Source: Escherichia phage 212
Sequence record: PQ765507
DNA length: 64,000 bases
Reading direction: 5' to 3' (one strand)
Below are positions 38,951 through 39,701 of the stretch, piece by piece; position 1 is the first letter of the stretch; each line of letters opens with the position of its first letter. The position numbers and the translations under genes are program-made. A model generated the notes under the pieces. The model had not been told where the DNA came from and did no database searches. It worked only from the letters and a program-made list of their open reading frames with translations.

Positions 38951-39184
38951 ATGTTAAACTTAATTACAAATGAAAGAGTTACACAGGCATATGGTGACAG
39001 TAATGACGGAATCTATGTCTACAAGGGAGACCGCCGGATTGGTTTCATTACTGACCTGAAGGCCAAATTGTTAAAAGAACTGAAAGCTCAAACAGGTGAT
39101 TCTGGGTTTAGAGCAAGAGCCAAAAAGAAAGATGAACGCCTGGGTGCCAACTCTTTTGGTCCTAGAGGTTACAACCGCTACTAA
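38951..39184 (+). CDS. truncated paralog of the Alc N-terminal region
   Basis: 77 aa; YGDSNDGIYVYKGDRRIGFITDLKAKL parallels YGDRHDGIYVYKGSKNVGFLTDLRKKL at the start of the next gene. Confidence 0.55.
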   Translation: MLNLITNERVTQAYGDSNDGIYVYKGDRRIGFITDLKAKLLKELKAQTGDSGFRARAKKKDERLGANSFGPRGYNRY

Positions 39185-39197
39185 TGAGGAAAATATT

Positions 39198-39701
39198 ATG
39201 AATATGCAACTGATTTCAAATGATATGATTGTTGATGTATATGGTGACCGCCATGACGGAATCTATGTTTATAAAGGTTCCAAAAATGTTGGGTTCCTTA
39301 CTGACTTAAGAAAGAAACTGGCGTCTGATAATAAGTTGAAGGCGAAACAAAAAGAATATCGTGATAAGAAATCAGAAGAGCGGAAAGAAGCCCTTCATGA
39401 ATCTGTTCCCGAAATGGTTGACTTCTTAAAGAACCATTTGGTTAAATATGATGCAGAAGTGTTCATCAATCAGACCCAACCTAATGTGCATATCAATGGA
39501 TGTGTTTGTTATGTTGTGGTTGAACCCCTGACACTTCAACACCGCCTGGGAATTAAACACCCAGTGTTAACCCAGGATGATATGGCGGATGAAGTTGGTA
39601 ATCAGTTCCGCATTTCAACATCTGACAGTACAAATCACATCCTCCTGAATGGTTTATCCCAGGATGATATTGTTGAGGTAATCATCAAGTTATGCAAATA
39701 A
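39198..39701 (+). CDS. alc: Alc-like protein (host transcription termination/unfolding factor)
   Basis: 167 aa (same as T4 Alc) at the T4 alc position; ATG with TGAGGAAAATATT upstream. Confidence 0.65.
   Translation: MNMQLISNDMIVDVYGDRHDGIYVYKGSKNVGFLTDLRKKLASDNKLKAKQKEYRDKKSEERKEALHESVPEMVDFLKNHLVKYDAEVFINQTQPNVHINGCVCYVVVEPLTLQHRLGIKHPVLTQDDMADEVGNQFRISTSDSTNHILLNGLSQDDIVEVIIKLCK

Follow-up and report, generated by a model that had tools for sequence, protein, structure and literature searches.

The window analysed here, a stretch of 64,000 nucleotides (nt) from Escherichia phage 212 (sequence record PQ765507), carries a short gene, alcb (38951..39184, + strand), directly upstream of a full-length alc, the gene of the transcription terminator Alc. 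The product of alcb, a protein of 77 amino acids (aa) with the sequence MLNLITNERVTQAYGDSNDGIYVYKGDRRIGFITDLKAKLLKELKAQTGDSGFRARAKKKDERLGANSFGPRGYNRY, is a real paralogue of the N-terminal part of Alc, and the coordinates and peptides that a first-pass annotation of this DNA had given for the two genes are exact. Comparison of the sequences indicates that alcb, which changes faster than alc, is a gene kept by purifying selection and no decaying footprint, and alcb and alc probably constitute one early operon with translational coupling rather than two separately expressed genes. The evolutionary and structural part of this reading is held with great confidence; the functional part, in which the short protein (AlcB) modulates Alc, is put forward conditionally below.

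Homology and predicted domain content

The short product had been proposed to mirror the N-terminus of Alc, and this was borne out by BLASTP, in which 27 of 62 positions are identical to the window Alc (44%, E=3e-16) with the first ~62 Alc residues covered, and by the Pfam family ALC (PF17527), which matches alcb with 42.5 bits (cutoff 25, E=7.3e-11) at profile positions 3-62 of 177. An end-to-end match (1-77 vs 1-77 of 77, E=2.9e-53) was likewise obtained to phrog_17715, a 77-aa family labelled 'inhibitor of host transcription'. The Pfam search of alcb gave no match besides ALC at E<=0.1 and the NCBIfam search gave zero matches, so that the PRC-barrel label carried by the orthologue of phage EAWsc9 was not reproduced. 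No family or fold match was found for the alcb tail, and Rfam returned a sub-threshold chance match only.

The longer open reading frame (ORF) that follows, alc or alca (39198..39701, + strand, 167 aa), is indeed the Alc homologue that it had been taken for. It matches PF17527 with 171 bits (E=2.5e-50, profile positions 1-176 of 177; PHROG 1253 family), and it is a true Alc, with ~55% identity to the T4-type Alc cluster and a position within the synteny known from T4, rnlA-alc-pseT.3-pseT.2-...-pseT. A search of the PDB by sequence found no Alc relative among the solved structures.

The short gene is already known by annotation, under names that rest on similarity. In phage SP18 (GenBank GQ981382, 2010) the pair is named alcb (SP18gp241, 'similar to N-terminal region of JS98 Alc') and alca, the SP18 alcb protein being 100% identical to that of the window, and in phage VR7 the short gene is called VR7ORF243c. 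In the literature searched, nothing specific turned up on alcb, on Alc in Gaprivervirus or on the domains of T4 Alc, and no paper there discusses the short gene; the selection test, the tail motif, the operon layout and the additional lineages presented here were found in no paper searched.

The AlphaFold2 (AF2) model of Alc (predicted local distance difference test, pLDDT, 93) is composed of an N-terminal head (N-head, residues 1-33, with a helix at 8-15 and a hairpin at 23-33), a 47-residue helix (34-80) and a C-terminal alpha/beta domain (C-domain, 87-166), and the last of these appears to resemble the MotA double-wing domain, a moderate likeness that serves as a lead. In the AF2 model of alcb, residues 1-33 form the N-head (helix and beta-hairpin) and are followed by a helix at 33-53 that is confident only to about residue 45; the model matches the Alc head and helix at pLDDT ~90 (residues 11-40), with pLDDT ~50 in the tail. 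This basic, glycine-bearing tail (residues ~52-77, window 39104-39181) contains a conserved GANSFGP motif and, judging from the model, is probably disordered. The full Alc architecture, an N-head, a long helix and a C-terminal alpha/beta domain in about 165-170 aa, is not present in the 77 aa of alcb, which has no C-domain. Missing are Alc residues ~63-167, with half of the long helix and all of the C-terminal domain, and also K52 and Y54, the invariant positions of the KQKEY motif in Alc.

The importance of the lost part can be gauged from T4 GT7, a phage with a spontaneous alc mutation (PMC12115623). The sole difference of its alc (L020, KJ477686) from the family consensus is H115R, located in the conserved KHRLGI of the C-domain, as would be expected if Alc needs this domain to be active. 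Since AlcB has lost the C-domain, and since the GT7 substitution fits a need for it, AlcB would be no terminator by itself. Compared with the T4 reference (L016, AF158101), the GT7 alc displays both H115R and G36D; D36 is the family consensus, so the G36 of the reference is the unusual residue. No CDS is annotated for alc in the GT7 record KJ477686.

Distribution, age and selection

The 1.2 kb around alcb and alc exhibit 99.7-99.8% identity with Escherichia phage P479 and Shigella phage SP18, and 33 records display 94-99% identity over the same region, the individually inspected ones being Gaprivervirus (Straboviridae, Tevenvirinae), the genus to which the window is likewise assigned. Whether relatives carry one copy or two, a check that the first-pass annotation had proposed, was answered by tblastn and by metagenomic contigs. 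Near-identical, full-length alcb was found in ~33 records, which are the only ones with two Alc-like places, and ~760 other T4-like genomes have a single Alc-like place; alcb is intact in all ~33 Gaprivervirus records. Three further divergent lineages among the metagenomic contigs (L002/L003, L004 and L019) carry rnlA followed by a 77-78-aa ALC ORF and a 167-aa Alc, the neighbouring Alc being 78% (L002/L003) and 79% (L004) identical to that of the window. The next relative out, a sister lineage (L005-L007) whose Alc is 63% identical to the window's, has alc alone and no alcb.

A library of 1.84 billion representatives yielded only 36 Alc-family clusters, and the other N-terminal-only proteins in it were confined to broken T4-type genes and two oddities; the broken copies, P0002 and the truncated T4-type alc P0046, are isolated. 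The two oddities are contigs with altered Alc genes. At L018:2894-3431 (Logan SRR10769897), from a distant T4-like phage, a frameshift splits alc at about the middle of the long helix into a 61-aa N-terminal and a 111-aa C-terminal ORF, and this one contig is compatible with a genuine split, a pseudogene or an assembly error. At L017:198-725 (P0063, ENA ERZ15185088), a gene of 175 aa lying upstream of a dCMP-deaminase-family gene combines an Alc-like N-head (profile E=1.4e-4) with an unrelated C-terminal region, a fusion which hints that the Alc head is a portable module.

The duplication is old, as the third-codon-position identity between alcb and alc is only 38% over 60 aligned codons. The tail motif and the synteny that the short genes share suggest a single origin of alcb, and the pairwise identities of the N-heads (62 columns, 0.27-0.52) leave the closeness of each short copy to its own neighbouring Alc unsettled. 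TGAGGA is also located 5' of the T4 alc and of the window alc, and ATGAGGA is common to alcb, alc and T4 alc, so the ribosome-binding site was probably copied along with the coding part.

Differential patterns of conservation were observed along the short proteins, which between lineages are 45-64% identical, with saturated synonymous sites (pS 0.69-0.81), a length of 77-78 aa throughout and a ratio of non-synonymous to synonymous divergence (dN/dS) of 0.13-0.27, that of alc ranging from 0.09 to 0.15. In the N-head, 16 of 36 columns are invariant, and all eight of the N-head columns that are invariant over Alc and the short proteins together are retained in the latter. The helix residues 37-51 contain one invariant position, compared with ten in the tail (G52, F53, R63, G65, N67, S68, F69, G70, P71 and N75 in alignment A3). 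The tail motif G-x-N-[ST]-F-G-P is conserved despite the saturation of synonymous sites, the C-terminal consensus of the short proteins being R-x-G-x-N-[ST]-F-G-P-x-G-x-N-[KR]-[FY], and the fourth lineage displays ANTFGP and a C-terminal NKF. That the tail stems from another reading frame or from alc DNA further downstream was rejected, as local alignments of protein and of DNA scored no higher than shuffled sequences.

These values bear on the suggestion, also made in the first-pass annotation, that the short copy is the footprint of a cassette-mediated duplication, a non-functional remnant, or else on a leader ORF that matters only for the expression of alc and whose peptide is irrelevant. 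The truncated copy does adjoin a cassette of the promoter early stem-loop (PeSL) kind, and the junction of the alcb stop with the Shine-Dalgarno sequence of alc would let translation of alcb drive that of alc. However, frame and length are kept in four lineages despite saturated synonymous sites, the dN/dS values are those of purifying selection, the motifs are invariant at the amino-acid level and broken copies occur in isolation only. The selection test largely refutes a remnant or mere leader, and we consider either to be highly improbable.

The conserved tail also raises the possibility of a neofunctionalised, independent effector, in which the N-head would be no more than an anchor or scaffold for the basic N-[ST]-F-G-P tail, and the tail would be directed at another host factor or nucleic acid, outside the Alc pathway. 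Such an effector would account for the ten invariant tail positions against the one in the helix, for the retention of the motif and of the C-terminal NKF in the fourth lineage, and for an evolution faster than that of Alc (dN 0.5 vs 0.18), and the N-head fused to an unrelated C-terminus in P0063 would be a comparable case. On the other hand, the strict adjacency to alc and the stop/Shine-Dalgarno junction in every lineage seen argue for a shared function, and the tail has no match to a family or fold with which it could be associated; a role wholly outside the Alc pathway is thus regarded as doubtful.

Promoter, probable operon layout and locus

The local gene order is that of T4 (nrdA-nrdB-denA-rnlA-[alcb]-alc-pseT.3-pseT.2-ORF-pseT), with alcb located between rnlA and pseT.3 behind an early promoter, which is the setting of an Alc-family locus. 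A stem-loop, AAGGGG-TGTACA-AGCCCCTT (38885..38904, + strand), followed by a T-rich tract, was detected upstream of alcb by terminator scan and RNA folding and is terminator-like for rnlA. It has 7 bp (4 GC), a folding energy of -11.1 kcal/mol and a modest z=-1.36, and it encloses the -35 hexamer of a T4-early/sigma-70-type promoter, TGTACA-17-CATAAT (38891..38919, + strand; 9/12 matches in the promoter scan). The element at 38885 had been described beforehand as PeSL-like, and with both the stem-loop and the early promoter present the description is fair. SP18, VR7 and MN01, the Gaprivervirus loci examined, all have the identical stem-loop sequence, which is absent from L002 and L004.

This promoter belongs to a strand-specific family, with 15 members on the + strand of the window and 2 on the - strand, the shuffle mean being 1.8. 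The + strand cassettes, which follow the extended pattern T[GT]TAC[AT]-N16-18-[TC]A[TC][AT][AG]T, with an A-rich tract upstream and partly shared leaders, are located at 966, 10359, 11045, 11952, 14371, 16610, 30487, 30920, 31610, 38891, 40437, 43165, 47236, 47680 and 55967. The commonest -35 hexamer among the 15 is TGTACA, not TTTACA. Those at 14371, 30487 and 47236 exhibit the classical PeSL layout, with a GC hairpin and a T-run 15-20 nt upstream of the promoter, and the 5' untranslated region of the 38891 promoter, 'ttccatcaactactgat', is identical to the leader of the cassette at 30487.

In T4 (TTTACA-17-TATAGT), as in L002, L004 and the single-copy L005, the rnlA stop is immediately followed by an early promoter, and this common position identifies the promoter at 38891-38919 as the ancestral promoter of alc. 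Two-copy and single-copy lineages differ exactly 3' of it, and no second cassette flanks the insertion. Since the promoter position is ancestral, T4 included, there is no sign that a cassette mediated the duplication.

The claim that alcb possesses its own promoter and is separately expressed is not supported by this comparison. The motif scan of 38920-39198 revealed no early, middle (TGCTT, MotA-box) or late (TATAAATA) promoter motif, the gap between alcb and alc is 13 nt in the window and 10-13 nt over the lineages, and the alcb stop overlaps (TGAGGA) or abuts (TAATGAGGA) the Shine-Dalgarno sequence of alc in every lineage seen. The Shine-Dalgarno sequence of alcb itself, GAGGA (38939..38943, + strand), was read 7 nt 5' of its ATG. 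In the window and in SP18 the alcb stop TAA (39182-39184) is followed in frame by TGA, giving a double stop (39182-39187), and the Shine-Dalgarno sequence of alc, GAGGA (39186..39190, + strand), comes directly after the TAA and includes part of this second stop. In VR7, L002 and L004, the alcb gene ends in a single TGA that overlaps the GAGGA of alc, an arrangement typical of translational coupling. With an ancestral promoter in front, no internal promoter, a gap of 10-13 nt and a stop at the alc Shine-Dalgarno sequence, the two genes are best read as a bicistronic early unit.

The mechanical ORF 39096..39701 is the upstream-extended frame of alc, and because the extension is interrupted by a stop in L004, 39198 is the likely alc start. 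As the extension is not conserved, both a longer alc of 188-201 aa that reaches into alcb and a fusion by frameshift were rejected. In the region 39096-39197, several database entries (P0003 of 188 aa, P0004 of 189 aa and those of phages P8 and UPEC01) have alc beginning at an ATG further upstream, with an overlap with alcb.

Among the Gapriverviruses, the first ~50 alc codons (window 39160-39360) form a mosaic patch with two allele types, in which synonymous divergence (dS) is ~1.0 vs ~0.13 in the rest of alc and identity falls to 68-72%; in the flanks of the patch, alcb included, identity is 95-100%. In UPEC01 an alcb of the window type stands next to the other allele of the alc head, and recombination has therefore taken place between the two genes. 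Gene conversion from alcb to alc was rejected as the source of the patch, since of 26 allele-distinguishing sites alcb agrees with one allele at 6, with the other at 9 and with neither at 11. Further downstream (window 40437-40802), the best sigma-70-like promoter of the region, TTTACA-17-TATAAT (11/12), leads to a 112-aa ORF (phrog_2364) that occupies the place of pseT.1 in T4.

Proposed role of AlcB and known systems

Alc acts on Escherichia coli RNA polymerase as a terminator on cytosine-containing DNA and not on modified DNA, mutations in dispensable region I of rpoB (beta) abolish the action of T4 Alc, and the mechanism was called not known in Hinton's 2010 review (PMC2988021). In the explanation that we propose, alcb arose when the 5' third of alc, ribosome-binding site included, was duplicated in tandem long ago and the copy landed between the ancestral early promoter of alc and alc itself. 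By prediction, AlcB retains the Alc N-head and the first turns of the long helix and has no C-domain, and it has gained a conserved, probably disordered basic tail. The gene is most likely transcribed together with alc from the one early promoter and translationally coupled to it, and AlcB would bind the partner of the Alc N-head, either host RNA polymerase (beta dispensable region I) or Alc itself, and would tune or assist Alc-dependent host transcription shut-off, with the tail as a second contact. A paralogue that consists of the head in its conserved fold and is produced along with Alc would be expected to contact the partner of the N-head, and the conservation of the basic and aromatic tail suggests more than passive competition. 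The whole package, from origin and operon to binding of the N-head partner and modulation of Alc, is put at an even chance, and the suggestion of the first-pass annotation that the short copy is a regulator or decoy is plausible.

Several points weigh against a modulatory role. The alcb dN is ~3 times that of alc, indicating a weaker constraint, and a purely structural role could account for the invariant N-head residues (G, D, G, I). That a new tail is conserved suggests that the protein has gained a function, perhaps one unconnected with Alc. Moreover, Alc itself reportedly seems not to bind DNA or RNA (review PMC2988021), and the literature searched contained no transcript, protein or interaction data for alcb in any phage.

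A more drastic role would be that of a pure dominant-negative decoy, in which AlcB occupies the docking site of Alc on RNA polymerase, or forms dead heterodimers with Alc, so that termination is damped and the phage's own non-glucosylated DNA is spared the shut-off. An N-head retained while the C-domain is missing is what such a decoy would look like, co-expression from one promoter would fix the AlcB:Alc ratio, and alcb occurs only in a lineage group that includes Gaprivervirus. Gapriverviruses are reported to be without the dCMP hydroxymethylase gene and to retain alc, denB, denA and dCTPase (PMC12115623, PMC8056088); gene 42 lies outside this window, and its absence from Gaprivervirus is taken from these two papers. 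Gaprivervirus cytosines are reported to be modified and unglycosylated, as described for the DNA of VR7 (PMC6326788). However, a decoy has no need of a tail motif that is invariant across lineages while the helix diverges, a promoter-proximal inhibitor on the same mRNA would largely cancel Alc, and there is no evidence of Alc dimerisation; a pure decoy is accordingly judged unlikely.

Within the proposal that AlcB modulates Alc, a tie to the different cytosine modification of Gaprivervirus is possible. A more specific form, in which AlcB serves Alc as a dedicated partner or opposes it as an antagonist, and so retunes this terminator in T-even-like phages with a different, non-glucosylated cytosine modification, reportedly without the canonical hydroxymethylase, is advanced tentatively, and we think it improbable. 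If true, AlcB would be a phage 'microprotein' regulator of a transcription terminator and would show Alc divided by nature into a head that docks on RNA polymerase and a double-wing domain that senses DNA.

How a 19-kDa protein terminates RNA polymerase only on unmodified cytosine DNA has been an open question for decades, and alcb, being a natural and selected head-only paralogue, offers a ready domain-dissection reagent for Alc. If AlcB binds RNA polymerase or Alc, the docking module would be identified, leaving the MotA-like C-domain as the candidate DNA sensor. The gene also marks a lineage (Gaprivervirus and relatives) with unsettled DNA modification chemistry; otherwise it is narrow, lineage-specific and already annotated, and its general interest is modest.

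Regarding known systems, SP18 alcb, VR7ORF243c and PHROG 17715 are the same gene as the window alcb, with no difference. The PeSL cassettes (Arbiol et al. 2010, PMC2839356; Comeau et al. 2014, PMC4122927) resemble the alcb element in the combination of a hairpin with an early promoter, in a gene directly 3' of the element that is present or absent between related lineages, and in membership of a repeated cassette family of the genome, but the alcb hairpin encloses the -35 hexamer instead of preceding the promoter, and its z is -1.4. T4 Alc (PF17527) shares with AlcB the homologous N-terminal ~60 residues, the predicted head fold and the locus after rnlA with its early promoter, whereas AlcB is without residues ~63-167 (the K..Y of KQKEY and the H115 domain) and has the new conserved tail; transcription termination by AlcB cannot be assumed. 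By analogy, AlcB may be compared to the microProteins, a eukaryotic concept of shortened paralogues by which the full-length relatives are regulated; these likewise are small single-module copies of a multi-domain regulator that are made alongside it and have no effector domain.
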